From contig JABXIJ010000003.1 in assembly GCA_013373105.1 (NCBI GenBank), positions 10,452-74,451 of the forward strand: a DNA stretch of 64,000 bases, written 5' to 3'. The notes beneath the pieces were generated by a model. The model worked only from the letters and a program-made list of their open reading frames with translations, searched no databases and had not been told where the DNA came from. Each line of letters begins with the position of its first letter. The stretch's first letter is position 1. Shown piece by piece: positions 33,638-57,627 of the stretch. Position numbers and translations under genes: made by a program. The DNA is from Flavobacteriaceae bacterium. Its GTDB lineage: Bacteria > Bacteroidota > Bacteroidia > Flavobacteriales > Flavobacteriaceae.

Positions 33638-34555
33638 TTAAAATTTCAAATTTTCGTTTTTATCCCATAAACCCCAATAAGCTCCTACGTCACCTTCTGC
33701 TCCTACCTTCCAAGATTCATCAAATGAAGAGAAATAAAACACTTCTATTTCATCTTTAGCAGACCAAGCTTGAGTATTAATAAAATACTTCATTGCATTT
33801 TCGACAGATGAATGTGCCCCTCCTAAACTACTACCTTGACTTGGCCAACCTGTTTCTGTAATAATCACTTTTTTACCATTTGCAGCATGTGAAGCTTGGC
33901 TAAACATTTGCTGCATATGAGCCAATGAGTGTTCTAAGCTACAACCCTCCCAATAAGGGTAACAGTTTGCTAAAATTATATCGCAAGAATTGGTAATCGC
34001 TGGTCTATGAGAAAACTCGTAATAAGCGTCTACATAACCTACAGGAATTCCAGTACCTTTTAATACTTCTTTAACTCTCCAGATATAGTCTATTAATTGT
34101 TGTTCTGTTAAATCTTTACGATACATCACCTCATTACCAACTGCTGCTATATCTACACAACCTTCTTTTGCAAGTTGAATTAGTCCTGCAATCTCTTCTT
34201 CATTTTTTTCCATATCATCACCAAGCCAAGCTCCTACAAGATTTTTCATACCATGTTTTTTAGCGATTCGTGGTATATTTTCATTACCCTCTATACAAGA
34301 AAATGAACGAATCCAACTTGTGTAAGGTTTCAATATTTTTACACGTCTTTCAACTTGTTCTATAGTAATTGTATCACCTGGCTCTTGACCATCTTCGTAC
34401 ATACTAAAACATATTCCATGCATTCCTGCTTTTAATGTTTTATTCCAAAGGTTTCTCAAATCTTCTTCCGAGGTGTATTTGTCAAAATTTACACCAGAAC
34501 TTTCACCTATTTGTAAGTTCTTAACTAAAAACTCACGTCCTTCTCTATATGACAT
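33638..34555 (-). CDS. GH17 family beta-1,3-glucanase/transglycosylase without a signal peptide
   Basis: The GH17 catalytic blocks are present: AVGNEVMY (acid/base Glu) and ITETGWPSQG (nucleophile Glu). The N-terminus MSYREGREFLVKNLQ is hydrophilic. The upstream gene ends only 18 nt away. Confidence 0.8.
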   Translation of the reverse strand: MSYREGREFLVKNLQIGESSGVNFDKYTSEEDLRNLWNKTLKAGMHGICFSMYEDGQEPGDTITIEQVERRVKILKPYTSWIRSFSCIEGNENIPRIAKKHGMKNLVGAWLGDDMEKNEEEIAGLIQLAKEGCVDIAAVGNEVMYRKDLTEQQLIDYIWRVKEVLKGTGIPVGYVDAYYEFSHRPAITNSCDIILANCYPYWEGCSLEHSLAHMQQMFSQASHAANGKKVIITETGWPSQGSSLGGAHSSVENAMKYFINTQAWSAKDEIEVFYFSSFDESWKVGAEGDVGAYWGLWDKNENLKF

Positions 34556-34573
34556 TTTATATTAATTTTTATT

Positions 34574-36139
34574 TTATAATACTCCTCTACGCTCTATTAA
34601 TTTTTCTTTTATTTCTCTTGCTCTATTTTCACTTAAACTATAATTCCACATTACCCAAACTGCTAATGCTGCTGTTACAGATGGCACTAAAATATCTGCA
34701 ATTCTTAAGTTATTCATAGTTTCAACAGTTTGCTCTGTTACATTTGGATCAAAACCTACAATACTTAAAACAACACCTCCTAAAACCAAAGCTATTGATT
34801 GTCCTATTTTAACCATTAGCCAATAAATTGCTCCAAAGCTTCCTTCTTTACGAGGCATTCCATTTTCTAATTCATCTAAATCACAGACATCTGCAGTCAT
34901 ACTCATCATTAAAGTGAATAATCCTCCCATACCAAAAGCAAATAAAGGAATAGGTACAAATATTAACCATGGAACTTCTGTACCAGGCTCTATTGTAAAC
35001 CAAGACATTCCTACACTTTCTAAAGCTGGATTTAAAACCTCGAAAATTGAGCTTACTCCAGAACTTAAACTTTGTCCTAATGATGTTTGATTAAATTGAC
35101 TATTTAATTCTTTGTCAAATCCCCACCATTTTAGTACATAACCAATAATAGATAGAATTGTAGATATAATAAATGCTTTTCTTTTTCCAAATTTGCTTGC
35201 CATTCTAGAAATAATTGGTATTACAATAAATGCAGTTATAATTGCATTAATAGTATTAAACCAAGCGGGCCAAGTTCCTGCCAATTCATAACTACCACTA
35301 TACATATAAAACACAATAATAAAAACTCCAAAAGCAGCTACTAATTGAAATCCATTAAACACTAAAAAAGTAGCTCCACATAAGCGCATAAATGGTCTGT
35401 TTTTAGATACTTGCTTAATTCCATCTAACAGTTCTTTCATATTTTTTGCAAGTGATTTTAATGAAAGTTCTTTCCTGTTTTCCATGTTAGCAGAATCAAT
35501 TCCTTTACAGAATAATGCAGGTAAAATTCCAAAAACTATACATAATGCACCAACTATTAAAGCCATAGTTCTAACACCTTCTGTTTGTGTATTAAATGTG
35601 TTCGTATCAGGAATAATTACATACAACCAAGGAACTATCATCCAAGCTATTTGCCCCATTGTATTAGAAAACGCCATTAATCGTGTTCTTTCATTATAAT
35701 CTGATGTCATTTCATAACCTAAACCAACTAATGGTGTAGCAAACATTGTATTACCTATTAAAAACAGCAGTTGTAACACCATAACATGCCATATTATATA
35801 AGTTTGAGATGCATTATCATCTAATTGCCACATCAAGAAAAATAATACACCACTTATTATAGCTCCAATAAAAATATATGGTCTTCTTCTACCCCATTTA
35901 GATTTTGTATTATCAGAAATAAAGCCCATAATTGGGTCTGTTATTGAGTCAAAAATTCTTGGTAAACCACCCAACAATCCTGCCCACAATGGATCTACAC
36001 CCCATGCAGTTAATAAAAAGAATTGGATGAAAACCCCAAGAGTTCCTGGTAATATATTTAGGATAAAATGACCTGCACCAAAAGCTGATTTCTGACCAAT
36101 AGGTACTTTACCTCTAGATAATTTTGCTTGATTTGACAT
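34574..36139 (-). CDS. GPH/MFS-type sugar:cation symporter
   Basis: It has about 12 TM helices and the early motif GFISDNTKSKWGRRRPYI, typical of the glycoside-pentoside-hexuronide family. It is embedded among the glucanase genes. Confidence 0.85.
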   Translation of the reverse strand: MSNQAKLSRGKVPIGQKSAFGAGHFILNILPGTLGVFIQFFLLTAWGVDPLWAGLLGGLPRIFDSITDPIMGFISDNTKSKWGRRRPYIFIGAIISGVLFFLMWQLDDNASQTYIIWHVMVLQLLFLIGNTMFATPLVGLGYEMTSDYNERTRLMAFSNTMGQIAWMIVPWLYVIIPDTNTFNTQTEGVRTMALIVGALCIVFGILPALFCKGIDSANMENRKELSLKSLAKNMKELLDGIKQVSKNRPFMRLCGATFLVFNGFQLVAAFGVFIIVFYMYSGSYELAGTWPAWFNTINAIITAFIVIPIISRMASKFGKRKAFIISTILSIIGYVLKWWGFDKELNSQFNQTSLGQSLSSGVSSIFEVLNPALESVGMSWFTIEPGTEVPWLIFVPIPLFAFGMGGLFTLMMSMTADVCDLDELENGMPRKEGSFGAIYWLMVKIGQSIALVLGGVVLSIVGFDPNVTEQTVETMNNLRIADILVPSVTAALAVWVMWNYSLSENRAREIKEKLIERRGVL

Positions 36140-36158: not shown

Positions 36159-37643
36159 TTATAGTTTTATAGTTTGAATTGACTCTTTTTGAACAGCAAT
36201 AACAACTGACTTATCAACTAAAACAAGTTCAATTGTTTTTGGTTTGTTTGTTTGATTAAAAACAACAACTGCTATAGAACCATCTATATTTTTTGCAGCA
36301 GTAATCATTAATTCTTTATCTGTATTTTGCACTTCAATTACCTTAGCTTCTGGTCTAATAAATCTACTAAAATGAGCTAAAGTGTAATAAATTGGCGTAA
36401 AGTAAACTTCGTCTTTTTCTTCATCTACAATAACAGGAGCTACACACCAGTTTTTAAACCAATTTGGGCCTCCTTGTTTATTTAAAACCATATTCCAGTC
36501 TATCCAACCATCTACCCAATTGTTTAGACATCCAATAATATCTCTTGCATATCTAAAAACAGGTGAATATTTAGGATGTAAATGTTTATCTTTTTCAGGT
36601 GCCCAATCCCAACCCCAGTCTGTGGCTTCTTTATTCCAATACCACTCATCATCTTTCCACTTAGGTACTTCTGCATCTACACAAGCTTCAGATTGAATTA
36701 AATATTTATTTGGTGCTTTTTCATGAGCATATTGTAATTCTTCTGGAAAATAATGAAATGTACTTGCATACCAGTGAATTGCTGTACCATCGAAAAATTT
36801 AGTTGTTTCTTCGTTTTTAAACTGAGCGTCTACCCATTCTTTTAAATGCTCTCTGTTTTGATCATAACCTAAAATTTTAACGCTTGGATAATCTGCTCTT
36901 AATTTTGGCCCTAAATGATGTTGAACGAAATTGGTCATTTCCTCTGGAGTGTAATGCATACTTTCCCAGTTACTATCATTTCCTAGTGGTTCATTTTCTA
37001 CAGTTACTCCCCAAATATCTATACCCTGCTTTTTGTAAGCTGCTATATATTTTGAGAAAAACAAAGCCCATGTGTCGTAATATTCTGGTAAAAGTTTTCC
37101 ACCTGTCCAATTATTATTGTCTTTCATCCATGGTGAAGCTGTCCAAGGTGATGATAAAATTTTAAAACCATCTTTTGATACTTTCATTGCATCTTTAATC
37201 ATTGGAATTATATCATCTTTATCTTCTTCAATAGTAAAGTGTTTTAGCTCCTTATCGTCAACAATGGGTGCATAAGAATACTGATCTAAAGAAAAGTCAC
37301 AAGAATTCATATGAGTTCTAGTTAGTGAATATTTAGCACCAGTTTCACCAAAATATGCTTCTATAATTTTTGCTCTATTTGCTTTACTTAGTTTATTTAA
37401 TAAATAAGCAGAAGCTTCTGTAAATGATCCTCCAAAGCCAGTTATGGTTTGTCTCTCATTTTTAGGGTTTAGAACAACTTTTGTTATTTCAGATGTATTT
37501 TCTTTACCTGAAAAGTTATTTAGTTTAGTTAATTTATTACCAGCCTTAGAAGTTTCATACACTTCTACAGTTAGTGTTTTTTCTTGCATATTGCAACTCA
37601 CAATCATAATACAACTAATAAATAGTAAAACTCTTTTAATCAT
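36159..37643 (-). CDS. GH30 family glycosidase (beta-1,6-glucanase/glucosidase type), lipoprotein
   Basis: It has a lipobox (IVSC). It shows the GH30 acid/base block GVTVENEP and the nucleophile block IQSEAC. The overall layout is glucosylceramidase-like. Confidence 0.85.
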   Translation of the reverse strand: MIKRVLLFISCIMIVSCNMQEKTLTVEVYETSKAGNKLTKLNNFSGKENTSEITKVVLNPKNERQTITGFGGSFTEASAYLLNKLSKANRAKIIEAYFGETGAKYSLTRTHMNSCDFSLDQYSYAPIVDDKELKHFTIEEDKDDIIPMIKDAMKVSKDGFKILSSPWTASPWMKDNNNWTGGKLLPEYYDTWALFFSKYIAAYKKQGIDIWGVTVENEPLGNDSNWESMHYTPEEMTNFVQHHLGPKLRADYPSVKILGYDQNREHLKEWVDAQFKNEETTKFFDGTAIHWYASTFHYFPEELQYAHEKAPNKYLIQSEACVDAEVPKWKDDEWYWNKEATDWGWDWAPEKDKHLHPKYSPVFRYARDIIGCLNNWVDGWIDWNMVLNKQGGPNWFKNWCVAPVIVDEEKDEVYFTPIYYTLAHFSRFIRPEAKVIEVQNTDKELMITAAKNIDGSIAVVVFNQTNKPKTIELVLVDKSVVIAVQKESIQTIKL

Positions 37644-37644
37644 T

Positions 37645-38928
37645 TTATTTTGGGTAATCTGTATTTGGCTCCATTACCGTTTTTAATAATGCATCTTTAT
37701 CTCCATTAAAAGATTTAGTTATTTTCTTCCCATTTCTTTCTAATCCATCAAAAATTCCTTGATCAACTAAATTCCAAATTGGATATTTTGCTTCTCCTTT
37801 TAAATTAATTAATCCAAAATGATTTTCAGAACCATTAGGATTAGCTGCATCTTTCCACTGCTCATCGAAAGCTTCGAAATAAAAACATGATACCCCTTCA
37901 GCATTTGTCCATTCTCTCATATGTTTATAATACAATCCTTGCTTATATTCATCTGACGCTCTAGAACCATCTTTACCATAATGTCCATCTGAAATTGAAG
38001 CCCAACCTGTTTCTCCAATATGAACTGTTTTTGTTGAATCAATAGTCTTAACATAATCAACTACTTTATGGTAAAGCTGTTTGGCATTATCTGCTGCACG
38101 TAACATAGCTTTATCAGCTTTTTCAACAACTGATAAATCTTTTTCCTCTTCTGGCACTTTCCAAAAAGCAGACACATAATGCGAGTAATGATAAGGATAG
38201 GTGTGCATTGACACATAGTCTACAGATTTAATTAAGTCTTCCAAATCTTTAACTTTGTAGCTTGCATCACCACCACCCCAAGATGAAAAATCATCTGAAC
38301 TTGTAATCCATAAATCTTTTGAAAGTTCACCACTTTTCTTTAAATCTTGTAAGTGATTTACCCACTTTAAAATTACATTTGGCCTAACAAAATAACTTGT
38401 AGCCCATGTAACCATTGCCTCATTACCAACAGCTATTATTTTAACAATATCTGGGTATTGTTTGGCCAAAGCCACTGCTCTAGCAATTTCACCTTCGTTA
38501 TTTGGGCTTTCTATTTCATGATTAGGAGCTTTATCTGTCCAAGCATTTAAGCAATCTATCCAAGCCCCAAGCATAACATACATTTCAAAACTTGAATCTT
38601 CTTTTTTTAATTCGCTAATTGCTTTTAAAACATTAGAAGCATGTGGTAATTTAGGTTGCACATTGTAAGTTCTTAAAATGCGAATACCCATTGCATGCAT
38701 TATTTTTAAATCTTCTTTAAGTTGATTAATTGTAGGTTGAATTTCTCTTGTGTTTTCTCTGTAACCACCATAAGAAATTGCCAAGTATTTTGGGTTTCCC
38801 AAAATATCTGCTGCAGTTAAGTCTTTTTTAGTTTTCAATACGTCGTCCTCTTTTTGTTCATTTTTTACACAGGATATCATAGAAATTAAGAACACTAATA
38901 TTAGAATAGATTGTAATTTATTTTTCAT
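37645..38928 (-). CDS. GH17 family endo-beta-1,3-glucanase, lipoprotein
   Basis: It has a lipobox (MISC), plus AVGNEAMV (acid/base) and IGETGWAS (nucleophile). Confidence 0.8.
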   Translation of the reverse strand: MKNKLQSILILVFLISMISCVKNEQKEDDVLKTKKDLTAADILGNPKYLAISYGGYRENTREIQPTINQLKEDLKIMHAMGIRILRTYNVQPKLPHASNVLKAISELKKEDSSFEMYVMLGAWIDCLNAWTDKAPNHEIESPNNEGEIARAVALAKQYPDIVKIIAVGNEAMVTWATSYFVRPNVILKWVNHLQDLKKSGELSKDLWITSSDDFSSWGGGDASYKVKDLEDLIKSVDYVSMHTYPYHYSHYVSAFWKVPEEEKDLSVVEKADKAMLRAADNAKQLYHKVVDYVKTIDSTKTVHIGETGWASISDGHYGKDGSRASDEYKQGLYYKHMREWTNAEGVSCFYFEAFDEQWKDAANPNGSENHFGLINLKGEAKYPIWNLVDQGIFDGLERNGKKITKSFNGDKDALLKTVMEPNTDYPK

Positions 38929-38989: not shown

Positions 38990-40789
38990 TTAATATTGTA
39001 ATCCATAACCAAATTCGTAAAGTGGTTTTATACTATTATCCCAAAAATTTGGTCCATACTTACCCTTATAATCTTCTAAAGATTTTGGCCAAGAATGTGG
39101 TAATTTTCCTTTAAAATTGTATTCTCCAAATAATACTTCAGCAACACCATCTCCTTCAGAACCTGGTAACCAAGCTGCAACAAAAGCATCTGAAGCATTA
39201 ATTTCATCAGTAACTACTAATGGTCGACCAGATATTAATACAACTAATGTTTTAATTCCTTTTCTTGTATACTTTCTAATATAATTTTTATGTTCTATTG
39301 TTAACTCTAAAGTAAGTTTGTTGGATTCATGCCCTATGTCTCCAAAAAACTCTGCATAAGGTTGTTCACCTACAACTACTATTGCTAAATCTGCATCTAA
39401 ATGATCTCCTTCAGCTTCTTTATCATAAACAACTTTAGCCTTTGTTTGTTTTTTTATACCGTCTAAAATGGTGGTTGCCCCTTTATAGTTTTCTTCTGTT
39501 CCTTGCCAATTTACAGTCCAACCTCCAGATTGCAAACCAGAACTATTAGCATGCTCTCCTACTACAACAATTTTTTTTATGTTTTTTGATATTGGTAAAA
39601 CACTTTTATTTTTTAACAAAACAAGTGATTCTCTAACAGCTTGTTTGGCAATTTCTCTATGTGAAGTAATTCCAATTTTTTTGACTAATGATGAATCTGG
39701 AAAAGGGTTTTGAAAAAGTCCTAATCTGAATTTTTGACGTAAAATCCTGCGAACTGCATCATCTATTCTCGATAATGGAATTTTATTTGACTCTACACCT
39801 TCTTTAACTCCTTGTTGAAAATCGTCTAAATCTCCATCAACTGCCATTACCATATCTACACCAGCATTTATAATATCAATACCTCCAAAACGTGAATATG
39901 CTTTCCAATCAGAAACTAGTATTCCATCGAAATTCATCCCAACTTTTAACGTATCTGTTAGTAATGCTTTGTGAGCATGCATAGAAATACCAGTAACAGT
40001 ATTAAAAGACGCCATTACAGCTCCAACTTTTTCTTTAACAGCTACTTTGTAAGGCGGTAATAACAATCCTTGTAACTGTTCTGTTGAAAGTGATGTTTCT
40101 CCACCTTCTACTCCAAAATTTGTAGCTCCATCACCAACATAATGCTTAGCTGTTGCCATAACTGTAGAAGAGTCTTCTAAGTTGCCTTGATGCCCTCTTA
40201 CAGAGGCTTTAGTTAAAGATTCTGTAATTTTAGTGCTTTCTGAAAATGATTCGTAAACTCTCCCCCATTTTTCATTAAATGGAATTGCTATACATGGTGA
40301 GAAAACCCAATTAAATCCTGTAGCTTGACTTTCTAAAGCCGTAATTTTTGCAATTTTTTCTACAAGGTCAGGATTATTTGCTGCTCCTAAACCAATATTA
40401 TGAGGAAAAATTGTTGCCCCTTCAAAGGTGTTTTGACCATGAACAGCATCTACACCAAAAAGTAAAGGAATACCTAACCTAGTTGATAATGCTTTCTTTT
40501 GAAGTTTTACAAATTTTGCTTGCCATTCTTCAGCAATTTCACCTGGTAAAGGACCTTGAGTGTGAATAATAGAACCAATAAATTTTTCTGAAATAGATTC
40601 TTCTGCTGATTCTTCAAAATGTCTAATTTGAGACATTTGACCAATTTTTTCTTCTAAAGTCATTAACTTTAAAAGAGAGTCTATTTTTTGTTCTAATTGA
40701 GCATCTTTACTCATTACTTCTTTTTTTGAACAGTTTAATAGTAGTATTAAAAAACAACAAAGCACATATTTTAAATTGCCGTTAATCAT
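38990..40789 (-). CDS. GH3 family beta-glucosidase
   Basis: The GH3 blocks are present: GVDAVHG, KHYVGDG, and GILVSDW containing the nucleophile Asp. It has a signal/lipobox (LLLNC). Confidence 0.9.
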   Translation of the reverse strand: MINGNLKYVLCCFLILLLNCSKKEVMSKDAQLEQKIDSLLKLMTLEEKIGQMSQIRHFEESAEESISEKFIGSIIHTQGPLPGEIAEEWQAKFVKLQKKALSTRLGIPLLFGVDAVHGQNTFEGATIFPHNIGLGAANNPDLVEKIAKITALESQATGFNWVFSPCIAIPFNEKWGRVYESFSESTKITESLTKASVRGHQGNLEDSSTVMATAKHYVGDGATNFGVEGGETSLSTEQLQGLLLPPYKVAVKEKVGAVMASFNTVTGISMHAHKALLTDTLKVGMNFDGILVSDWKAYSRFGGIDIINAGVDMVMAVDGDLDDFQQGVKEGVESNKIPLSRIDDAVRRILRQKFRLGLFQNPFPDSSLVKKIGITSHREIAKQAVRESLVLLKNKSVLPISKNIKKIVVVGEHANSSGLQSGGWTVNWQGTEENYKGATTILDGIKKQTKAKVVYDKEAEGDHLDADLAIVVVGEQPYAEFFGDIGHESNKLTLELTIEHKNYIRKYTRKGIKTLVVLISGRPLVVTDEINASDAFVAAWLPGSEGDGVAEVLFGEYNFKGKLPHSWPKSLEDYKGKYGPNFWDNSIKPLYEFGYGLQY

Positions 40790-40793
40790 TTAA

Positions 40794-43700
40794 TTATTTT
40801 AAAATAGATACTATTAAATAGCTTACTTTATTTGTTCTATTAAAAATTTCTGTACTTATAGTTTTACTTAAGACTAAGCCTTCAACACTTTGACTTTCAG
40901 AATCATTGAAAATAACATCTATACTTTCTTTATTAGATATTTTATAAATTACGGGAACTTGACAATACGTAAAACACATTTGGTTTTTTTGAATATGTAA
41001 TTGCTTATGATTTCCAGAAACACTTATATAATCAAATACCTCATCAGAGTCTAAAAACTCATTCTTTTTTAATAATCTTGGTTTAAAGGTTATTTTACCA
41101 TCAAAAACAAAAACACCAAGTTCTCCTATTCTACTTAAAATATCTTCTTTTACTTGACCTGTCATACCTGGTTGTTGTGCTCCTTTTGTTGCTGGTGTAT
41201 GTGAATAAGCATCAGTTGGAAAAGCACCATAAAGTTCTGGTGATTTATGCACTCCAATACCAGCATTTATTTCATAATAATGATCAAGTAATTTCCCTAT
41301 TACCACATCACTTTCTTTAGTATTTATAGCTAACAAGCAGTTTTCTTGAACAGCTAAAAGTAATTTTGAAACCATATGCCAATAAATAGAACCTAATCCT
41401 TCATAACCGAAAAAAGTTCCAGAACGTCCAGTAAATGATTTGTGATCAAATATTTCTTCAAAAACCTCAAGAATATATTTTTTCTCTTTTTTTACCAAAC
41501 TTGTATAGTCTTCAGGTAAACTTTCTAGCGCAGTTTTTACACTATTAGCATTATTGAAATTACCATTAAAATGATAGTTCCCTAGAATGTCTTTTTCAAC
41601 AATTGTTTGATTATCATCTTTAATCAATGTTTTAATTAAATTTGATTGTTCAATTTTAGATTTTTCAATATTATTTTTAGCTGTAAATCTTGGTAAGTTT
41701 TTATTAGGATATAATATATAACTATATTGATCTGGTCTAAACAAAGCACTAGCTTTTAATCCGTCTAATAAATCTAAAGCCTCTTGTGGAGACAAATAAC
41801 CTGAACTTAAAGCAGCAACTTGGCCTTCTAACATTTCAGGTAAATACGAAATTGATACTTCTTTTTCGTTCTCAAGCGTCATTAAATTATACGCATGATA
41901 CATATTATCTTTTCGCTTATTTGCTCTAATACTATGATCTAAATATTGCTTAGTCAGCTCAAAAAACTGTATTAGTTCAGCTTTAGAAACTGACGCTTTT
42001 TTAGCTGAAAATCCTTTTTTATAAATAGTGTTTCTATATTCACTAGCAGGAATTCCTACACCATCTAATATGGTTTTTCTTTCTTCATTAGAAACACTTT
42101 TAGATAATATTGTTGCATTTTCATCTAATACTTCAAGAATACTAGTAAACATTTTTGCAACTTCTATTGAAATTTCAACGCTATCAGTATTTGAGTTTTC
42201 AACTACATTTTCAAAAAAGTTTATAAACCTTCTTAAATAATATAATGTAACCATAGAGACACCATTACCAACTAAAGCGTTGTTAGCATCATTCCATTCT
42301 GGGCGTTGAGTATTTAACCAAATACCACCTTCTGGAATAAAGTTTGATACTTTTGCTAAAACTGTAACTAATAATTTCTCTATTAAATTAACCTTATATA
42401 TTGTATTACTTTGATCTCTTAACAAAGCACCATCTGCACCTAATTCTTCTCTTCTTTGCTCTATAATTTCTTGCAATTTATGGTCGAAATCAATTGTATC
42501 TTTTGAGTTTTTTAATATATCTTCATAAGGCTTAATTATATATGGCACATTTGCATAAACAAAAATTTGTTCAGTAAATAACTCATTCAATTTAGCTGGA
42601 TAATAATTTTCTATAAACTCTAAGAATTTTAGTAGATAAATTATTTGATGATCTCCCCAATAACCAATGTAAGACCAAGGGTCATTTTCTTCGATAACTT
42701 CCCAATCGAAACCACCTTTAGTAACTCTGTAAGGATTATATCCTTCAAATGTTGTTGCATTTAAAAACTTATGAATCATACTCTCAATAAACTGAGGATA
42801 TGAATGTGCAAGTGCTTCCCAGTTTTGAAAAATATCACGCCAGTTACCTTCGTAATCTAAAATTTTAGAGCCATCAATCTCACTTTTTGTATTTATAGAA
42901 AACTTATTCCATGGTCTACTTGGGTCTCCATGTCTTCTACTAAACTTTAATGGAAGATACTCTAAACATAAACGTTTAAAATCTGAATTTGAATCTTTTT
43001 CAGCCAACTCTTTAATAAACGATAAGGAAAATTCTTTAGGTAAATTGGCTAGATCAGTTTTTTTAAGTTGATACAACTTCTTATTAGCATTTGCTAAATA
43101 TGTTGTAAAATCATCTTTTTCAATTTTGTAATTGTCATCAAATATTCCACCTCTCATTATATTGAAAAGTGTATTAGAAAAATGACGTATATTTACTAAA
43201 GGATCATCAGATAGTTGTAAACCATCTGAAGCAGCTGCTAATTTTATAAGTTTGTTGGTACCTTCATCTATTGATTGTTGAAGTAGTGCTGTTAAATTCG
43301 ATTCATTTTTAATCAATTCAGAGATACTAACAACATCTGAAACAGACTGATTAACATTAGCAATCTGTATCCAAGATTCTGTACTATTTTCTTCTAAACT
43401 AATTGTTGCAGAAGTAAGGTAAGCACCTTTTTCTGCTTTTACATCAACCTCTTGCGTTAAAGCATTACCATTTCTGAAAGCATCTAATTGAGAAGAGGAC
43501 AATAAGTAGGTTGGGTTGTCTAAACCTAAAGACCAAACAATATTAGCTTTTAAAGCTTCACTTGGTTCTGCTTTATCAACGATTATGGCACTTAGTGCAT
43601 AAATACCTAAACCAACTTCTTCTTCTAATTCACACTTTTTATAAGCATCTACAAGGTTACTTCTGATGCCTTGTAAATCTGCACCAACTCCATAAGGTAA

Positions 43701-44237
43701 AATGTTTTGCATACCATCTAAAACATCAATTTCTAAAGCTTTTGATGAATTATTGGTAAGTCTTGCCTTTCTAACAAAACCATAAGCATCACTTGAGTTC
43801 CATTCGTATTGAAATGAAAGGTTTAAATCATAATTTATTTCCTCAAAAATGATTTTATTTCCATAGATATTTTTGTAAATATTTCTTTTTGTTTGATAAA
43901 TACCTGCTTGTCTTTCCGAAAAAGGTTCCCAAAGTTTAGTAACTGAACCATCTTTAAATCTAAATATGGTTTTACTACCTGTTGTTTCAGCTAACTGAGT
44001 AATTTTATCATCTGTATAATAAGGAAATAAAGAAAAGTCTGCATTTTTTCTACCAGCAGTTAAACCACCATTGCTTGAAATAAACATCCAATGATTAGAG
44101 TCTGAAACTATAGTCATAAAAAAAGGTCTCATTCTATGACTGTTAGCTATTTTATAAAAAGTTTCACCTTCTATATTTACTAAACTTCCAGCTACTTTAT
44201 CTTTAGAAATTTCTTTTTGAATAATTGAATTGTTCAT
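40794..44237 (-). CDS. Large cytoplasmic protein, candidate GH149-like beta-1,3-glucan phosphorylase (the ORF is certain; the family call is tentative)
   Basis: It is 1147 aa with no signal peptide. GNWRDIFQNWE (residues 464-474) and RPEWNDANNAL (residues 645-655) resemble the RDxxQ and (D)WND catalytic-Asp blocks of GH94-type (alpha/alpha)6 phosphorylases as I remember them. The gene context is GH3/GH17/GH30/MFS. Confidence 0.45.
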   Translation of the reverse strand: MNNSIIQKEISKDKVAGSLVNIEGETFYKIANSHRMRPFFMTIVSDSNHWMFISSNGGLTAGRKNADFSLFPYYTDDKITQLAETTGSKTIFRFKDGSVTKLWEPFSERQAGIYQTKRNIYKNIYGNKIIFEEINYDLNLSFQYEWNSSDAYGFVRKARLTNNSSKALEIDVLDGMQNILPYGVGADLQGIRSNLVDAYKKCELEEEVGLGIYALSAIIVDKAEPSEALKANIVWSLGLDNPTYLLSSSQLDAFRNGNALTQEVDVKAEKGAYLTSATISLEENSTESWIQIANVNQSVSDVVSISELIKNESNLTALLQQSIDEGTNKLIKLAAASDGLQLSDDPLVNIRHFSNTLFNIMRGGIFDDNYKIEKDDFTTYLANANKKLYQLKKTDLANLPKEFSLSFIKELAEKDSNSDFKRLCLEYLPLKFSRRHGDPSRPWNKFSINTKSEIDGSKILDYEGNWRDIFQNWEALAHSYPQFIESMIHKFLNATTFEGYNPYRVTKGGFDWEVIEENDPWSYIGYWGDHQIIYLLKFLEFIENYYPAKLNELFTEQIFVYANVPYIIKPYEDILKNSKDTIDFDHKLQEIIEQRREELGADGALLRDQSNTIYKVNLIEKLLVTVLAKVSNFIPEGGIWLNTQRPEWNDANNALVGNGVSMVTLYYLRRFINFFENVVENSNTDSVEISIEVAKMFTSILEVLDENATILSKSVSNEERKTILDGVGIPASEYRNTIYKKGFSAKKASVSKAELIQFFELTKQYLDHSIRANKRKDNMYHAYNLMTLENEKEVSISYLPEMLEGQVAALSSGYLSPQEALDLLDGLKASALFRPDQYSYILYPNKNLPRFTAKNNIEKSKIEQSNLIKTLIKDDNQTIVEKDILGNYHFNGNFNNANSVKTALESLPEDYTSLVKKEKKYILEVFEEIFDHKSFTGRSGTFFGYEGLGSIYWHMVSKLLLAVQENCLLAINTKESDVVIGKLLDHYYEINAGIGVHKSPELYGAFPTDAYSHTPATKGAQQPGMTGQVKEDILSRIGELGVFVFDGKITFKPRLLKKNEFLDSDEVFDYISVSGNHKQLHIQKNQMCFTYCQVPVIYKISNKESIDVIFNDSESQSVEGLVLSKTISTEIFNRTNKVSYLIVSILK

Positions 44238-44311: not shown

Positions 44312-44348
44312 GAAAAAAAAAGATGATGACAGCTAAGCTATCATCATC
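44312..44348 (-). terminator. Rho-independent terminator after GH16
   Basis: The stem gatgatgacagc / gctatcatcatc (one mismatch) is followed on the minus strand by a T10 run (A-run 44312-44321 on plus). Confidence 0.7.
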
Positions 44349-44362
44349 GTAAATAAATTTTA

Positions 44363-45193
44363 TTAATTAAAAACTCTAATGTAATCAATCTCCATTGTTT
44401 GTGGGAAAACTGTTTCAACATTTGGGCTACCCGCAAATGAACCTCCAACAGCTACGTTTAAAATAATATAGAATTCTCTATCGTTAAACACCCAATTTGT
44501 ACCATCTGGTAAATCATCTGGAGTTATTTGATTATAAAGAACATCGTCTACATAATAATTAATATAGTTTGGTCCCCATTCTATACCATAAATATGGAAT
44601 TGAGTATCTAATCTTGCATTTAAATCATAACTTTTAGTAACAGCATTACCTGCAGAGTAACCTGGACCATGAATTGAACCATGGGTTATAGTAGGTTCAT
44701 CACCTCTATTTTCCATGATGTCAATTTCACCAATATTTGGCCAACTTACAGAACCATTTTCATCATCACCTAACATCCAAAAAGCAGGCCATAGGCCTTT
44801 ACCCCATGGTAATTTTATTCGAGCTTCAAAACGACCATATTTTTGTTGAAATAAACCTTTGGTTAAAATTCTTGCAGATGTATAACCTGCACCCATATAG
44901 TTTTCTTTTATTGCTGTAATTTTTAACACGCCATTTTCTACCTTCACATTTTCTGGTCTTGCTGTATAGTACTGTAATTCATTATTTCCCCAACCAGGAA
45001 TTCCTTGAGCAGTACCATCACCGATTTCATAAACCCATCTGTTTATGTCTGGTGCACCAGAATTATCAAAATCATCGCTCCAAACTAAATTATTAAGTGA
45101 AGTCACCGTTTGTGTTTCTGAGTTTTCACAACTAGATAATACTGCTAATACTAACGCAACAAAACCTAGCCTATTTATTTTATTAAGCTTCAT
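44363..45193 (-). CDS. GH16 family endo-beta-1,3-glucanase (laminarinase), lipoprotein
   Basis: It has a lipobox (LSSC), the canonical GH16 catalytic motif E-I-D-I-M-E (GEIDIMENRG), and WPAFWMLG. Confidence 0.9.
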   Translation of the reverse strand: MKLNKINRLGFVALVLAVLSSCENSETQTVTSLNNLVWSDDFDNSGAPDINRWVYEIGDGTAQGIPGWGNNELQYYTARPENVKVENGVLKITAIKENYMGAGYTSARILTKGLFQQKYGRFEARIKLPWGKGLWPAFWMLGDDENGSVSWPNIGEIDIMENRGDEPTITHGSIHGPGYSAGNAVTKSYDLNARLDTQFHIYGIEWGPNYINYYVDDVLYNQITPDDLPDGTNWVFNDREFYIILNVAVGGSFAGSPNVETVFPQTMEIDYIRVFN

Positions 45194-46632: not shown

Positions 46633-49600
46633 TTATTTTCCAATATTTATATGAATATATGTTCTTATTTCCCACTCAGAACCATTAGGAAATCCTACAG
46701 GACTTATAGTAGGCTGAGTTGCAAATGCAGTTGAAGTAGCATTTGGTGAATATCTTGGAGAAAATTCATTTAAAGATCTCCAAGTTCCTCTAATTCCAAC
46801 TTTAGTATCTGGCAGTATAAACCAATCTGGTTTACCAATTGTAGTTGAAAAGTCTAACATCATTTGTAATGGAAAAGTTAAGTTGAAATCTCTGTGGTAA
46901 TCAAAAGGTCCCCAATCATTAACTTTAAACATTCCCATAATTTTAAATTTCTTGTAAATCATTCTTAGGTCTGCACCAAATCTTGTGATAGTTCTTTGAC
47001 TATCACCATTTGCTTGGCCTGTACCATAATACATATTAGCAATTATACCTAAGTTTTTATTTGCTTTTGAAACAATTCTAGAATTTACTTCCCATAAATC
47101 TTGTGCTGGAGCAGATTCTGCAAATCTAAAGAAAGAACGATCTGCTAAGAAACCAATAGCAGCATCCTGTGTAGTTGGTAAATGACGATATACAAAGCCA
47201 AGATTAAATGCAAACTTAGCATCTTCTGCTCTATCATTATCCCATTGATACATATAAGTTGCAGGAGTTGGATCGAATGTAAATAAAATTTCACCTGCTG
47301 TCATTTCTCGGTTTCCACCTCTTACAACAAAAGGATCGTCAACAAAGTTTCTTAATCTACCTGGTGCAGCAACACCATTTGGCATGGCATCTACTAAGGG
47401 CTTTTGCCACATAAAGTTTGGTGCTAACTGAAATTTACCTCCAAAATTATAAGCTATACCAGATAAGAAGTTTGATACGTTTCCACTTCCACTATCTTTT
47501 AATTTCCAACCTGTGAAAGTAAGTGTTTGATCTGCTCCTCCATTTGCAACTAAACCTCTAACAGAGCCTTGTGCATACAAGTTAAATCCTCCATTAGTAT
47601 AAGTTACTTTTGCTTTAGCACCCCAGTTATCACTTGCTTTAATTCTATCTACTACAACTTGACCTGCATCATTAACATCTTGATAAGCACTACCATTTAA
47701 TGGTCTACCAGCCCAAATTGCACCTACTGTTAAACCAATTTTATCTCCTTTTTTCTCAAAAGCTACTGTAGCTCTTTCAGTAGGAATTGCTGGTATAACA
47801 CCTGTTCTAGCTTGATTTGGATCTAAAACACGATTACCATTAGCATCAAAACCACCACCAGCAACAATATCTTTATGATAAATAGCTGCAAAATCAAAAC
47901 CTAATAGTTTCGTTTGGTATTTTAACAATACTGCAGGGTTGGCACCCCACCAAAGTTGTGGACCAAAGGCTGCTTTTAAACCATCTAATGAACCTTTACC
48001 ATCTACTTCAATTCCTAGAATTTCACCATTATAAATATCTAAGTTTGGTCCATAATTAGCTTCTGGATATAACCCAAAAAAGTCACCTTCATAACCCCAA
48101 TGATAATGTCCTGTTCTGTAGAAACCTCTTAAATTAAAATCTTTAGCATTCCATTCAAAAGAAGCATTATAAATTCTTAATCTATTATTATCTATTAATG
48201 TTGAAGAACCATTAGGTGTATTAACCTGAATAGGTCTACCAATATTTTCATAAAAAATATCATCTATTGGATTACTTGCTACATTTCCTAAAATATTAAA
48301 ATTAACCTCGGCTTTCATATTTTCTGATGGTTTACCTTGAACACCAATAAAATAAGACTGCATATGATCAAAACCTTGTCTGTCAGGAAATGCTAAACTT
48401 GTACCATCTGAATTTACTGGAGTTGTAGTTAATGAACCACCTGTATTAAATGTAGTAAATTGTGCTTGTAAATTGCTTATACTTAGCTTTTGGTTTCCAC
48501 CTATTACAGCTTTATCTCCTCTAGCTCTTAGTACAGCATCCATTAAGTTTATTTTTTCGAAATGATTTTCAAAATCCTGATATGTACTTGTAAACGGATT
48601 AAATTGATGTGCCTCTTTTAAAGCATAATATGATGCTCTTGGATATAAAGTGTATAAACCTCTAACATCTGTTGGTCCTTTTGCAGCAATTCCAAACCAC
48701 TCTTCGTTCATGTTTTTATCTCCTGGTTTTGCCTGATCTCTACTGTAACCATTACTTGGCCAAGAAGCTTCACTATCGTGAATACTTGCATTTTTTCTTT
48801 CGTCGAAACCAGATTTAAACCAACCATCACTAGACTGAAAAGTAAATCCTCCTAAAGAGTTTTGAGCTTTTCCTAGACCATAAGCGTTTTCGTAAATTTC
48901 TTTCCAGTTATTTATCATATAGTACGCTTGGGTATATTGATCTTCTTTGTTATCTCTTGCATTAAACGCATCAGCTCCAAACTCTGTAAATAAAATAGGT
49001 TTACCATACTCTTTACTTACTCTATCAAAAGCATCTACAAAAGATTCTCCACGATACATATTTGTTCCATAAATATCTATGTCTTTACATTCTTCTGCAA
49101 CTATGTCTAAATAAAGTAAATCTCCATTACAAATACCTATAGGATGTTGTACACCATTTTTTTTCATTGCTAAAGCAGCATCATTAAACAATTTATACAT
49201 TGCTTTTGCTTCTGCTCTTTTTGCTTGATCTTGATCATTAATTACAATTCCTTCATCTGTTTCAGCTCCTTCCCAAGTTAAATGATAGTTATTTTCATTA
49301 CCTAACATAAAAAGAAGTAAGCCTGGTGTATCTTTATACATTTTGGCCATTTTAACAGATTCCTCTATTAAGTGCTTTCTTACTTTTTCTGTAGCATATT
49401 TAGTATTAGGGTACCATACACCGTCTAAGGTTAAACCATATGCACCAAACTGATGGTTAATCATTGTATAAATACCAAATTTTTCATAGATATAGGTAAT
49501 CCATTTTGGTGGCATACCTATATATGTTCTTATTGCATTTACACCCATATTTTGCCATAGCACCATTTCTTCATCTAAACCTGCTTTTATAATATCGTCT

Positions 49601-49806
49601 GGTTTATCCCAAAAATTAGCATCTAATACATTAAAACCAATTGGTACATAATCCCAATTGATTCCATTTACCACAAAGTCTTTTCCATCAACTACTAATT
49701 TCATTCCTTTTGCATCAGAAACAACAGTTACATTGTTGACTTTTGATTGTGCAAAAAAGTTAAGAGTTAACAAGAAAAACAGTAATCTTAATACATTGTT
49801 CTTCAT
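46633..49806 (-). CDS. Clan GH-A (beta/alpha)8 glycosidase-like domain fused to a ~620-aa beta-barrel-like C-terminal domain
   Basis: It has a signal peptide. LGNENN (E171) and ILFTEFG (E275) lie about 104 aa apart, like the acid/base and nucleophile Glu of clan GH-A. Residues ~440-1057 are Gly/Asn/aromatic-rich with many alternating strands (KAKVTYTNGGFNLYAQGSV, LSGIAYNFGGKFQLAPNFMW, ADLRMIYKKFKIMGMFKV). Confidence 0.55.
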   Translation of the reverse strand: MKNNVLRLLFFLLTLNFFAQSKVNNVTVVSDAKGMKLVVDGKDFVVNGINWDYVPIGFNVLDANFWDKPDDIIKAGLDEEMVLWQNMGVNAIRTYIGMPPKWITYIYEKFGIYTMINHQFGAYGLTLDGVWYPNTKYATEKVRKHLIEESVKMAKMYKDTPGLLLFMLGNENNYHLTWEGAETDEGIVINDQDQAKRAEAKAMYKLFNDAALAMKKNGVQHPIGICNGDLLYLDIVAEECKDIDIYGTNMYRGESFVDAFDRVSKEYGKPILFTEFGADAFNARDNKEDQYTQAYYMINNWKEIYENAYGLGKAQNSLGGFTFQSSDGWFKSGFDERKNASIHDSEASWPSNGYSRDQAKPGDKNMNEEWFGIAAKGPTDVRGLYTLYPRASYYALKEAHQFNPFTSTYQDFENHFEKINLMDAVLRARGDKAVIGGNQKLSISNLQAQFTTFNTGGSLTTTPVNSDGTSLAFPDRQGFDHMQSYFIGVQGKPSENMKAEVNFNILGNVASNPIDDIFYENIGRPIQVNTPNGSSTLIDNNRLRIYNASFEWNAKDFNLRGFYRTGHYHWGYEGDFFGLYPEANYGPNLDIYNGEILGIEVDGKGSLDGLKAAFGPQLWWGANPAVLLKYQTKLLGFDFAAIYHKDIVAGGGFDANGNRVLDPNQARTGVIPAIPTERATVAFEKKGDKIGLTVGAIWAGRPLNGSAYQDVNDAGQVVVDRIKASDNWGAKAKVTYTNGGFNLYAQGSVRGLVANGGADQTLTFTGWKLKDSGSGNVSNFLSGIAYNFGGKFQLAPNFMWQKPLVDAMPNGVAAPGRLRNFVDDPFVVRGGNREMTAGEILFTFDPTPATYMYQWDNDRAEDAKFAFNLGFVYRHLPTTQDAAIGFLADRSFFRFAESAPAQDLWEVNSRIVSKANKNLGIIANMYYGTGQANGDSQRTITRFGADLRMIYKKFKIMGMFKVNDWGPFDYHRDFNLTFPLQMMLDFSTTIGKPDWFILPDTKVGIRGTWRSLNEFSPRYSPNATSTAFATQPTISPVGFPNGSEWEIRTYIHINIGK

Positions 49807-53093: not shown

Positions 53094-54575
53094 TTAATAA
53101 CCTGGGTTTTGTGGCCAACGATTTCCAGCTAAAGAGATTTCGATTTCTGGTATTGGAAACAATTCGTGTTTACCAGCTACAAAACCATTAATTTCTTGAA
53201 CTGCTCTACCTGTTCTTACTAAGTCAAAAAACCTATGTCCTTCACCTACTAATTCTACCCTTCTTTCATCTAAAATATTATCGTAAAGGGTATTTCCTGT
53301 TGCAGAAATATTATTACTAGTATTACCAAATGCTCTCTCTCTTACTCTATTTAAATAAGCTTGAGCTTTAGTATCATCTGGAGTTGAGCTTCTATTAAAA
53401 GCTTCAGCTGCCATTAATAAGACATCTGCAAAACGTATTGCTCTATAGTTATTTGGGTTAGTTAAATTTCTATCTCCTTGAGCAGCATTACTTCTTGTTC
53501 TAGGAATATACTTTCTATTAAAATAACCTGTATGTTCATAACCAGTACCATATGTTGCACCTGTTTGGTTAGCCCAAGCTACAATATCTAAAATAGCAAC
53601 ATCTTTACGTAAATCTCCTGGCTGAAATGCATCTACAACTTCTTGCACAGGTACATTAAAACTAAATCCTGATGAATACTCTGGTCCTGAATAAGCTCTA
53701 ACCCCATTAAAACCAACTGCAACATTACCCTCACTACACTGTAAACATCCAAAACCCGCACCTTGTCCTTCAAAATATTGAACTTCAAAAACAGACTCTA
53801 TATTATTTTCGCCTGCTTCTTCAAAAATCGATGCATAATTTTGAACTAAATCATAAGGCCCATTTTGAATTAGGTTTTCTAAAACTGAAGCTGCTTCATC
53901 AAATTTATTTTGATATAAATATGCTTTTCCTAACAATGCTTGAGCAGCTCCTTTTGTAACTCTACCAGGAGTAGATTGCACATAAGGCAAAATACTAGCT
54001 GCATAAGTTAAATCTGCTTCAATCTGTGCATAAACATCTGCTTTTGGTGTTCTATCTATATTAAATTGTTCACCAAACTGAATTCTTTTATCTACTTCTA
54101 AAGGTACATCTCCAAACCACTTAACTAATTCAAAATAGTAATAAGCTCTGAGGAAAGTTGCCTGTGCAAGAATTTGATCTTTTCCTGAAAAATCAATTTT
54201 ATCTTTAAACTCAAGAATGTAATTTGCTCTATTTACACCAGCATACATCCAACTCCAAATATCTCTTAATTGTTGATTTAATGGAGTGTGTCTCATATCA
54301 TCAACTTCTTGAATTCCTAAAACATCTGTTGCACTTTCACCTCCTGCTAAAGTATTGTCTGATGCAATTTCACCTAGCATTACATTTAGATAAGTTGATT
54401 GCAACATATCGTAAGCACCAATTAATGCATCTTCGTAATCTTGAGGTGTATTAAAAAAGTCTTCTGAATTGTCTGAAGTAGGTTTTACCTCAACAAAATC
54501 ATCGCTACATGAGTAATTAAATCCGATAAAAAGGACTAAACTCAATAAAATTTTTATGTTTATTTTTTTCATCAT
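53094..54575 (-). CDS. susD: SusD/RagB family nutrient-binding outer-membrane lipoprotein
   Basis: It has a lipobox (NYSC) and TPR-like helical SusD blocks (RAYYYFELVKWFGDVPL, GKAYLYQ, RFADVLLMAAEA, ERRVEL.GEGHRFFDLVR). It lies directly downstream of susC. Confidence 0.9.
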   Translation of the reverse strand: MMKKINIKILLSLVLFIGFNYSCSDDFVEVKPTSDNSEDFFNTPQDYEDALIGAYDMLQSTYLNVMLGEIASDNTLAGGESATDVLGIQEVDDMRHTPLNQQLRDIWSWMYAGVNRANYILEFKDKIDFSGKDQILAQATFLRAYYYFELVKWFGDVPLEVDKRIQFGEQFNIDRTPKADVYAQIEADLTYAASILPYVQSTPGRVTKGAAQALLGKAYLYQNKFDEAASVLENLIQNGPYDLVQNYASIFEEAGENNIESVFEVQYFEGQGAGFGCLQCSEGNVAVGFNGVRAYSGPEYSSGFSFNVPVQEVVDAFQPGDLRKDVAILDIVAWANQTGATYGTGYEHTGYFNRKYIPRTRSNAAQGDRNLTNPNNYRAIRFADVLLMAAEAFNRSSTPDDTKAQAYLNRVRERAFGNTSNNISATGNTLYDNILDERRVELVGEGHRFFDLVRTGRAVQEINGFVAGKHELFPIPEIEISLAGNRWPQNPGY

Positions 54576-54582
54576 CTTTAAT

Positions 54583-57500: not shown

Positions 57501-57627
57501 TGCTAACTCCAGGTAATACCTCACCAGTAGTTGCATCTTTAACAACTCCTTTTACATCTATAGTTTGTGCAGCTATATTTGCAACACAAAAAAGAGTGAG
57601 GAGTAATAAGATTAGATTTTTTCTCAT
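54583..57627 (-). CDS. susC: SusC/RagA family TonB-dependent outer-membrane transporter
   Basis: The signal peptide is followed by a CarboxypepD_reg-like domain (VKGVVKDATTGEVLPGVSILIKGS). A plug domain follows (LQGQVAGVNI, IRIRG...PLILLDG). A ~800-aa barrel ends in an aromatic residue (...GMNVNF). Confidence 0.95.
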   Translation of the reverse strand: MRKNLILLLLTLFCVANIAAQTIDVKGVVKDATTGEVLPGVSILIKGSIIGTETDFDGIYNIKAKTGDVLVFRYLGYQNKEVVVNQSTIDVSLSESAETLDEIVVIGYGTQTKKEVTGAVTVVGSATIEDLKPTRIEQALQGQVAGVNITQNSGSPGAGSNIRIRGVSTNGDSRPLILLDGRVIEDLSVVNPSDIESINILKDAAAGIYGVRAANGVILVTTKSGRKNTDFKSILNMSVGFQQTTREIPLLNATEYVLLANEAFAANGDALPFPNVSGLGQGTNWQNSVFQNAAQYNIDYTLNKGTEKSTYSLGISAISQDGIVGGSKSNFNRRNVRFNFDTDILENLKFTSSTIYTNTNKKNLPENVLGSVLFNAVNMPPTTPVYNANGDFSLPPATGTGIEVANPLTQIDNANNRTWVNKISGSYGLNYKFYDYFTAETRFQANHSVETANTFNRIRNFGNGSVFNIDQSTFVDYEISRYDYTFDAFLKYERVYNDVHDVKAMIGTSVFKTVGRFNTILTSNATGTSLNDVVISNPVLNGDGLAIYRNNNNGSSLSYDSRLLSYFARLQYSYDGKYLFSAVLRRDGSTNFGPQNKFGFFPTASLGWVISEEDFLKDNSVINFLKLRASYGILGNDRIGGFRFVSVLNGEAEYVFNNQLEQGLAIGPIANPEIRWEQQKPLDIGIDMEIFNDINITADYFRKTTDDLLVAAQTSGIIGVAAPGSSVPFINAGTVVNEGFEFAIGYRKAVNEDFNFNINYNATFIKNEVTFVGNETGIIEGGSFGVGQEPPSRMEAGFPIGYFYGYKTDGIFQTQADVNSHATQTNAAPGDLRFVDVNGDGVINSDDRTYIGDPFADVTMGFNFSFNYKNFDFNAYAFASIGNEIVRNYERNLPLTNRPTYYLDRWTGPGTSNTFPRVTTGATGNILFSDFYVEDGSFLRLQSVQLGYSLGEKMLKKLQFDKLRFYVSATNLFTLTNYRGFDPTTSNGASIGGGIDQGFYPNPKTFLFGMNVNF

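Follow-up and report, generated by a model that had tools for sequence, protein, structure and literature searches.

A gene on the minus strand of the 64,000-nucleotide window (the whole stretch of flavobacterial DNA that was analysed) very probably encodes a cytoplasmic GH149 beta-1,3-glucan (laminari-oligosaccharide) phosphorylase. The gene spans positions 40794..44237 (1147 codons plus stop), and its product is, on homology, an orthologue of Pro_7066, a metagenomic Bacteroidetes GH149 beta-1,3-oligosaccharide phosphorylase of known structure (PDB 6HQ6, 6HQ8; PMC5827456, PMC6771811). It is an ordinary, intact member of a known family, and it occupies the position usual for such genes in the laminarin-utilisation loci of marine flavobacteria. 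Earlier publications already cover the family and its structure, the presence of GH149 in Bacteroidota laminarin PULs and the in situ expression of these PULs, and nothing about them is new here; the value of the gene lies in a correct annotation and one further data point, not in discovery. Laminarin is among the largest marine organic carbon pools. A phosphorolytic last step in its use would let flavobacteria retain part of the energy of the glycosidic bond, saving one ATP per glucose, and this saving is relevant to growth yield in algal blooms.

Family assignment and cell location

Re-translation of the minus strand reproduced the open reading frame that the earlier note had placed at 40794-44237. 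The same note had proposed membership of GH149 and marked it as unverified; full-length matches to NF058639 and 6HQ6 now verify it. The curated NCBI equivalog model NF058639.1 (GH149_beta_1_3) scores 1805.4 bits, compared with a cut-off of 1150 bits, aligns protein residues 12-1145 with model positions 2-1133 of 1134, and is the only NCBIfam match at E ≤ 1. The protein also matches the Pro_7066 structures with 1606.7 bits and E = 0, residues 13-1146 aligning with residues 36-1170 of the chain. The NCBI annotation model would assign a name to this gene automatically. A Pfam scan returned no family at E ≤ 1, GH94 families included, and GH94 membership was rejected on that ground; Pfam appears to hold no GH149 model, and the assignment was settled by NCBIfam. 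GH161 membership was likewise rejected, similarity to the GH161 structures 9QQK and 9H8V being weak (E 1e-15 to 4e-15) and confined to three short stretches instead of running the full length. Both GH161 (PapP; PDB 9QQK/9SR2) and GH94 (cellobiose, laminaribiose and cellodextrin phosphorylases) share with the protein the RDxxQ and W-x-D type blocks and the (alpha/alpha)6 inverting phosphorylase mechanism. In substrate range they differ from GH149, GH161 being unable to act on laminaribiose and the laminaribiose phosphorylase of GH94 being disaccharide-specific (PMC6771811; PMC6484121).

The N-terminus, MNNSIIQKEISKDKVAG, is hydrophilic, with a mean Kyte-Doolittle value of at most 0.56 in every 15-residue window of the first 60 residues. 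The open reading frame was called from the first ATG, GTG or TTG after the preceding stop, which leaves no room for an earlier start that would extend the protein by a signal peptide. These two observations uphold the claim that the 1147-aa protein has no signal peptide. Across the whole protein the highest 19-residue hydropathy mean is 1.36, and hence no transmembrane-like segment was found over its full length. Similarly, no targeting peptide is predicted for Pro_7066 (PMC5827456).

Domain organization and active site

The alignment to 6HQ6 is collinear and near-gapless over residues 13-1146 and crosses both GH149-specific inserts, Dom 1 and Dom 2, each of which holds a single 2-residue indel. 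The domain limits given here are those of Pro_7066 transferred through this sequence alignment, and the boundaries are approximate. [quoted passage not shown] Dom 1 corresponds to approximately residues 365-425 (42963-43145, minus strand; Pro_7066 370-428) and Dom 2 to approximately residues 849-933 (41439-41693, minus strand; Pro_7066 852-938). At the level of sequence, the four domains, the two inserts and the RD, WND and His residues are common to both proteins.

Two motifs had been singled out from the translation, and both lie exactly where they were claimed to lie. GNWRDIFQNWE begins at residue 464 and places D468 at codon 42834-42836 (GAT), while RPEWNDANNAL begins at residue 645 and places D650 at codon 42288-42290 (GAT). 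The first contains the RD motif R467-D468 (42834..42839, minus strand), which is predicted to recognize the sugar 1-phosphate and aligns with R470/D471 of Pro_7066. The second contains the catalytic loop W648-N649-D650 (42288..42296, minus strand), equivalent to W651/N652/D653, so that D650, the predicted catalytic acid, aligns with the predicted catalytic residue D653. H954 (41376..41378, minus strand), the predicted phosphate-site histidine, is the counterpart of H959 in Pro_7066. R467, D468, W648, N649, D650 and H954 are each invariant in 90 of 90 homologues with 58-74% identity, as is every mapped residue of the phosphate site and -1 subsite. That the WND aspartate acts catalytically in GH149 is itself predicted from GH94 and from structure (PMC6771811, PMC6484121), and no mutagenesis of this residue was found in the GH149 literature examined.

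Predicted transcription unit

The GH149 gene leads a tightly packed unit. The order 1147-aa protein, GH3, GH17, GH30, GPH-MFS symporter and GH17, read earlier from translations, is agreed by Pfam and NCBIfam, and the successive intergenic gaps are 4, 61, 1, 19 and 18 nt. Its place as leading gene is borne out by an upstream gap of 125 nt that contains, just past the GH16 stop, a terminator-like hairpin of 12 pairs followed by a T9 run (44322..44348, minus strand). This hairpin likely marks where a separate or attenuated unit of transcription begins. The final gene of the upstream unit encodes a laminarinase-type GH16 lipoprotein (44363..45193, minus strand; Pfam Glyco_hydro_16) with an N-terminus closing in ...LSSC.

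Lying 4 nt 3' of the GH149 gene is a gene for a beta-glucosidase-type GH3 lipoprotein (38990..40789, minus strand; Pfam Glyco_hydro_3 and Glyco_hydro_3_C; lipobox-type ...LLLNC), whose best NCBIfam similarity, under the cut-off, is to an exo-beta-1,3/1,6-glucosidase. It is followed by genes for a 427-aa GH17 lipoprotein (37645..38928, minus strand; Pfam Glyco_hydro_17; N-terminus closing in ...MISC) and a 494-aa GH30 lipoprotein (36159..37643, minus strand; Pfam Glyco_hydro_30 and Glyco_hydro_30C; ...IVSC). The latter resembles an endo-1,6-beta-glucanase in NCBIfam, also under the cut-off, and is probably a beta-1,6 debranching enzyme. The lipoprotein-type signals of the GH16, GH3, 427-aa GH17 and GH30 proteins set them apart from the GH149 protein. 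A 521-aa GPH/MFS_2 cation:sugar symporter (34574..36139, minus strand; Pfam MFS_2, 218 bits; similarity to TIGR00792 gph) is presumed to be the inner-membrane importer. The last gene encodes a second GH17 of 305 aa (33638..34555, minus strand; Pfam Glyco_hydro_17), which has no signal peptide and a hydrophilic N-terminus (MSYREGREFLV) and is presumed to be cytoplasmic.

Conservation of the laminarin locus

The locus has the make-up of a Bacteroidota laminarin PUL, combining a SusC/SusD pair (SusC, 54583-57627; SusD, 53094-54596) with CAZymes for beta-1,3- and beta-1,6-glucan and a regulator with Y_Y_Y and GerE domains (57838-60636). Its CAZyme and transport genes encode GH16, GH3, two GH17, GH30 and MFS proteins.

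Downstream synteny was counted in those 62 related loci that extend 7 kb or more beyond the GH149 gene. A GH17 of the 427-aa type was present in 58/62, the MFS symporter in 59/62, GH30 in 49/62 and the second GH17 in 54/62, and the core order GH149-GH17-GH30-MFS-GH17 was found in most of them. GH3 follows GH149 directly in only 10 of the 62. On the other side, GH16 lies upstream of GH149 in 50 of 66 related loci. Among 201 sampled genomes from the same family, representing about 200 genera, 75 contain a GH149 protein above the cut-off. In the one genome of the same genus, which is complete, an HMM search found no GH149, and a DNA-level comparison with 19.7 kb of the locus gave no match, although this second search was run without a positive control and its empty result shows little.

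Proposed pathway and alternative roles

We propose that imported laminari-oligosaccharides are phosphorolysed in the cytoplasm to glucose-1-phosphate, a role that is well supported by homology and gene context. The same reading of Bacteroidetes GH149 loci as a phosphorolytic branch has already been published (PMC5827456). To judge from protein families and signal sequences, laminarin would be bound and taken across the outer membrane by SusC/SusD and trimmed in the periplasm by the GH16, GH17, GH30 and GH3 lipoproteins. The GPH symporter would carry the resulting laminari-oligosaccharides over the inner membrane into the cytoplasm. There GH149, with inorganic phosphate, would release glucose units singly as alpha-glucose-1-phosphate and stop only once laminaribiose itself has been cleaved, so that a single free glucose remains of each chain. 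Glucose-1-phosphate would then be converted to glucose-6-phosphate by an enzyme of phosphoglucomutase type whose gene lies outside the locus; the genome contains a 571-aa mutase of the PGM superfamily in addition to GlmM. With this conversion, each phosphorolytic cut saves the ATP of the hexokinase step. The 571-aa protein scores under every NCBIfam equivalog cut-off, and it is assumed to be specific for glucose phosphates.

The GH149 step of this scheme is deduced from orthology to Pro_7066, the activity of that enzyme and the conserved residues. Pro_7066, which is dimeric both in crystals and on gel filtration (PMC6771811), is a beta-1,3-specific phosphorylase with no predicted targeting peptide; it breaks down G3 and G2 to Glc, acting on laminaribiose no less well than on longer chains (PMC5827456; PMC6484121). 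The founding member of the family, EgP1 from Euglena gracilis, catalyses the same reaction; it is eukaryotic, with a possible targeting peptide, 45% identity to Pro_7066 and other chain-length kinetics (PMC5827456).

An extension of the pathway, which we regard as improbable, is that GH149 and the signal-less 305-aa GH17 work as a pair, by analogy with MalP/MalQ of E. coli maltodextrin metabolism. The GH17, as a beta-1,3-transglycosylase or an exo-enzyme, would remodel the oligosaccharides that are imported, some of them perhaps branched, and GH149 would then recover from these the maximum of glucose-1-phosphate. The presence of both genes in 54 of the 62 related loci speaks for such a partnership. 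It is disfavoured by the ability of Pro_7066 to use laminaribiose as readily as longer substrates, which means that Pro_7066 needs no helper, and by FbGH17B, a related domain from Formosa B that was characterised as an exo-glucosidase producing glucose (PMC6246565).

That the enzyme serves chiefly for synthesis in vivo, turning glucose-1-phosphate into beta-1,3-gluco-oligosaccharides in the cytoplasm or into a storage glucan instead of breaking down imported laminarin fragments, is very unlikely. Cytoplasmic phosphate normally favours phosphorolysis, and the gene lies within a SusC/SusD laminarin PUL together with degradative enzymes and an importer, an arrangement kept in most of the 62 loci. 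Laminarin PULs of this kind are, moreover, induced by laminarin and in blooms (PMC6246565; PMC10108472). Synthesis draws its appeal from the reversibility of the reaction, Pro_7066 elongating acceptors from Glc to G6 up to DP 11 in vitro (PMC5827456), from the signal-less GH17 of the same unit, a family with known transglycosylases, and from a paper on Muricauda that speculates on cytoplasmic beta-glucan storage.

One departure from Pro_7066 concerns the surface oligosaccharide-binding site, where four of eight residues are retained (Y841, Y993, E994 and K831, here Y838, Y988, E989 and K828) and the other four differ (E838 to P835, E982 to D977, E990 to D985 and R1062 to K1057), at positions that vary among homologues. 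Because the site is kept only in part, chain-length behaviour may differ from that of Pro_7066. These changes, together with the unlike chain-length kinetics of EgP1 and Pro_7066 at 45% identity (PMC5827456), could point to a substrate other than linear beta-1,3-gluco-oligosaccharides (for example laminari-oligosaccharides with beta-1,6 branches, fragments of mixed linkage, or only chains within a narrow span of lengths), a reading to which we give very little credence given the invariant -1 subsite and phosphate-site residues, an equivalog score far over the cut-off, and GH30 and GH3 enzymes in the same unit that already explain the removal of branches.

Relation to published loci

Laminarin PULs with GH149 are known from marine Flavobacteriia, including those of Formosa A and B, Formosa agariphila KMM3901, Polaribacter, Aurantivirga and Cd. 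Prosiliicoccus and the 'variant 1' laminarin PULs, and their expression in blooms has been reported (PMC6246565; bioRxiv 10.64898/2026.01.10.698779; PMC10108472). They have in common with the present locus a BguR-type regulator, SusC/SusD, a PKD protein, GH16, GH149, GH17, GH30 and MFS. In Formosa B the MFS protein is fused to a GH17 domain (PMC6246565), whereas the two are separate genes here. Although the start codons of the MFS gene and the 3' GH17 gene share a reading frame, two in-frame TAA stops lie at their junction, and the two form one open frame in 0 of 54 homologous loci; the idea that they are a split version of the Formosa B fusion was rejected on these grounds. The closest named locus is that of Polaribacter sp. 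BAL334, which has an identical gene order, GH3 included; proteins of the PUL genes common to both loci are 54-86% identical, and the T9SS protein is 42% identical.

Family assignment of the 1147-residue protein

The minus-strand ORF at 40794-44237 encodes a protein of 1147 residues that matched no family in a Pfam scan. It is, however, covered end to end by NF058639, the curated NCBIfam equivalog for '1,3-beta-D-glucan phosphorylase, GH149 family', which was its sole NCBIfam match and scored 1805 bits versus a cut-off of 1150. In a search of all PDB sequences, residues 13-1146 aligned with 6HQ6/6HQ8 (E = 0, 1607 bits), the structures of the bacterial beta-1,3-oligosaccharide phosphorylase Pro_7066. 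An earlier note, made from the sequence alone, had put the protein forward as a candidate GH149 phosphorylase, and the search for GH149, GH161 or GH94 similarity bears this out with a significant family match. Membership of GH161 was rejected, as GH161 structures aligned only in three short pieces (E 1e-15), and membership of GH94 was rejected, no GH94 domain having been hit in the Pfam scan. The gene product is an unremarkable orthologue of an enzyme whose activity and structure have already been determined, and it is encoded where such genes are normally found.

The same note had described the protein as lacking a signal peptide. The N-terminus is hydrophilic, the highest mean Kyte-Doolittle hydropathy over 19 residues anywhere in the protein is 1.36, and the annotated ATG is the earliest possible start downstream of the preceding stop. 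Hence there is no signal peptide and no room for a hidden one.

Active site and surface site

In Pro_7066, the WND loop is formed by W651, N652 and D653, of which D653 is the predicted catalytic residue, R470 and D471 constitute the RD motif that recognizes the sugar 1-phosphate, and H959 serves phosphate (PMC6771811). In the deposited chain the N-terminus is longer by 19 residues (1175 in total compared with 1156 numbered), and this offset was applied in the mapping. These six residues align with W648/N649/D650, R467/D468 and H954, their identities being verified by script. The two motifs reported previously are present, with GNWRDIFQNWE starting at residue 464 (D468, codon 42834-42836) and RPEWNDANNAL at residue 645 (D650, codon 42288-42290), and the proposal that the Asp of WND is catalytic is supported in that D650 aligns with D653. 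All six residues are invariant in an alignment of 90 sequences (this protein and 89 homologues of 58-74% identity, from 90 fetched loci), in which 245 of 1147 columns are invariant overall. Of the residues that form the surface oligosaccharide-binding site in Pro_7066, some are conserved: Y838, Y988, E989 and K828 are kept here, whereas E838, E982, E990 and R1062 are replaced by P835, D977, D985 and K1057, positions that also vary among the 90 sequences.

Organization of the laminarin locus

The gene belongs to a complete PUL of the laminarin type, which encodes, reading downwards from 60636, a membrane regulator with Y_Y_Y and GerE domains, SusC, SusD, a PKD lipoprotein, further lipoproteins, a 1057-residue protein, GH16 and the GH149 unit. 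[quoted passage not shown] This is the architecture of BguR, a membrane-spanning one-component laminarin regulator (2026 preprint, bioRxiv 10.64898/2026.01.10.698779). The mid-PUL 1057-residue protein (46633-49806, minus strand) has a signal peptide and no Pfam match at E ≤ 0.001; its homologues lie beside GH149 in 37 of 66 related loci. Just past the regulator, a gene of the alpha-glucosidase/alpha-galactosidase family GH97 (61109-63226, minus strand) is probably part of a neighbouring alpha-glucan locus.

Downstream of GH149 are GH3, GH17 (427 residues), GH30, a GPH/MFS_2 symporter and a second GH17 (305 residues), with successive gaps of 4, 61, 1, 19 and 18 nt. A 125-nt gap separates the GH16 stop from the GH149 start and contains a terminator-like hairpin (44348-44322, minus strand; 12 pairs, 5 of them G-C) followed by T9, which is consistent with the earlier claim that GH149 opens a separate, tightly packed unit. 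This strong hairpin and T9 suggest that transcription of the PUL is divided into two or more units, or else that fewer transcripts read through into the GH149 unit. GH16 on the upstream side and, within the unit, GH3, GH30 and the 427-residue GH17 each carry a lipoprotein-type signal that ends in Cys. The second GH17 has no such signal, and we consider it improbable that the phosphorylase is functionally paired with this signal-less enzyme.

Proposed function

Pro_7066 is a beta-1,3-specific, reversible phosphorylase without a targeting peptide, which converts laminaritriose and laminaribiose to glucose and uses acceptors from Glc to G6 with similar efficiency (PMC5827456; PMC6484121). Because of its orthology with Pro_7066, the GH149 protein would be expected to carry out cytoplasmic phosphorolysis of laminari-oligosaccharides to alpha-glucose-1-phosphate and one glucose per chain. 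The substrates of this enzyme would be generated on the periplasmic side by the lipoprotein hydrolases and taken up through the GPH symporter. The genome also encodes a 571-residue PGM-superfamily mutase, distinct from GlmM and below every equivalog cut-off, that could provide a route from Glc-1-P to glycolysis. The sequence data demonstrate the family membership, the active-site residues, the missing export signal and the synteny; from these we infer the transport step, the localisation, the direction of flux and a saving of ATP. The interpretation first given to this gene is supported.

Distribution and synteny

A GH149 phosphorylase in a laminarin PUL is already known. Bacteroidetes GH149 genes occur in PULs or CAZyme clusters with GH3 and/or GH30_1, together with GH17 and/or GH16, from which a role in external beta-1,3-glucan degradation was inferred (PMC5827456). 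Laminarin PULs with GH149 are found in Formosa strains A and B and Formosa agariphila (PMC6246565; bioRxiv 10.64898/2026.01.10.698779) and likewise in Muricauda species, and GH149-containing 'variant 1' laminarin PULs are expressed by Aurantivirga, Polaribacter and Cd. Prosiliicoccus in North Sea bloom metatranscriptomes (PMC10108472).

Within the same family, 75 of 201 genomes (about 200 genera sampled) have GH149 above the model cut-off. The one other genome of the same genus that was searched, complete and on a single contig, gave no GH149 in the HMM search, and 19.7 kb of the locus found no counterpart there at the DNA level in a search run without a positive control, so the laminarin PUL may vary within the genus. 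The nearest of 80 related loci in named genomes are those of Polaribacter (∼73% identity). In the 62 loci that include 7 kb or more of downstream sequence, GH149 is followed by GH17 (58), MFS (59), GH30 (49) and a second GH17 (54), and GH17 directly adjoins GH149 in 50; GH16 is upstream in 50 of 66. GH3 directly after GH149, as found here (38990-40789, minus strand), occurs in only 10 of 62. By these counts, the locus has the usual arrangement of the module plus a GH3 insertion that a minority of loci share.

The distance from the end of the MFS match to the start of the second GH17 is 13-40 nt in the window and its closest relatives, but around half of the related loci (for example L024, L027, L028, L030 and L042) have ∼930-1050 nt there. 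The longer interval has the appearance of an additional gene or domain, possibly the MFS-GH17 fusion known from Formosa B. Two loci from MAGs labelled Burkholderiales and Comamonadaceae (L079 and L085) encode a GH149 protein of 58-59% identity, and the genes around it are arranged as in Bacteroidota: both loci have GH17, GH30, MFS and GH17, to which L079 adds a GH158-barrel-like protein with GH16. Either these MAGs were mis-binned or the module has moved from one phylum to another.
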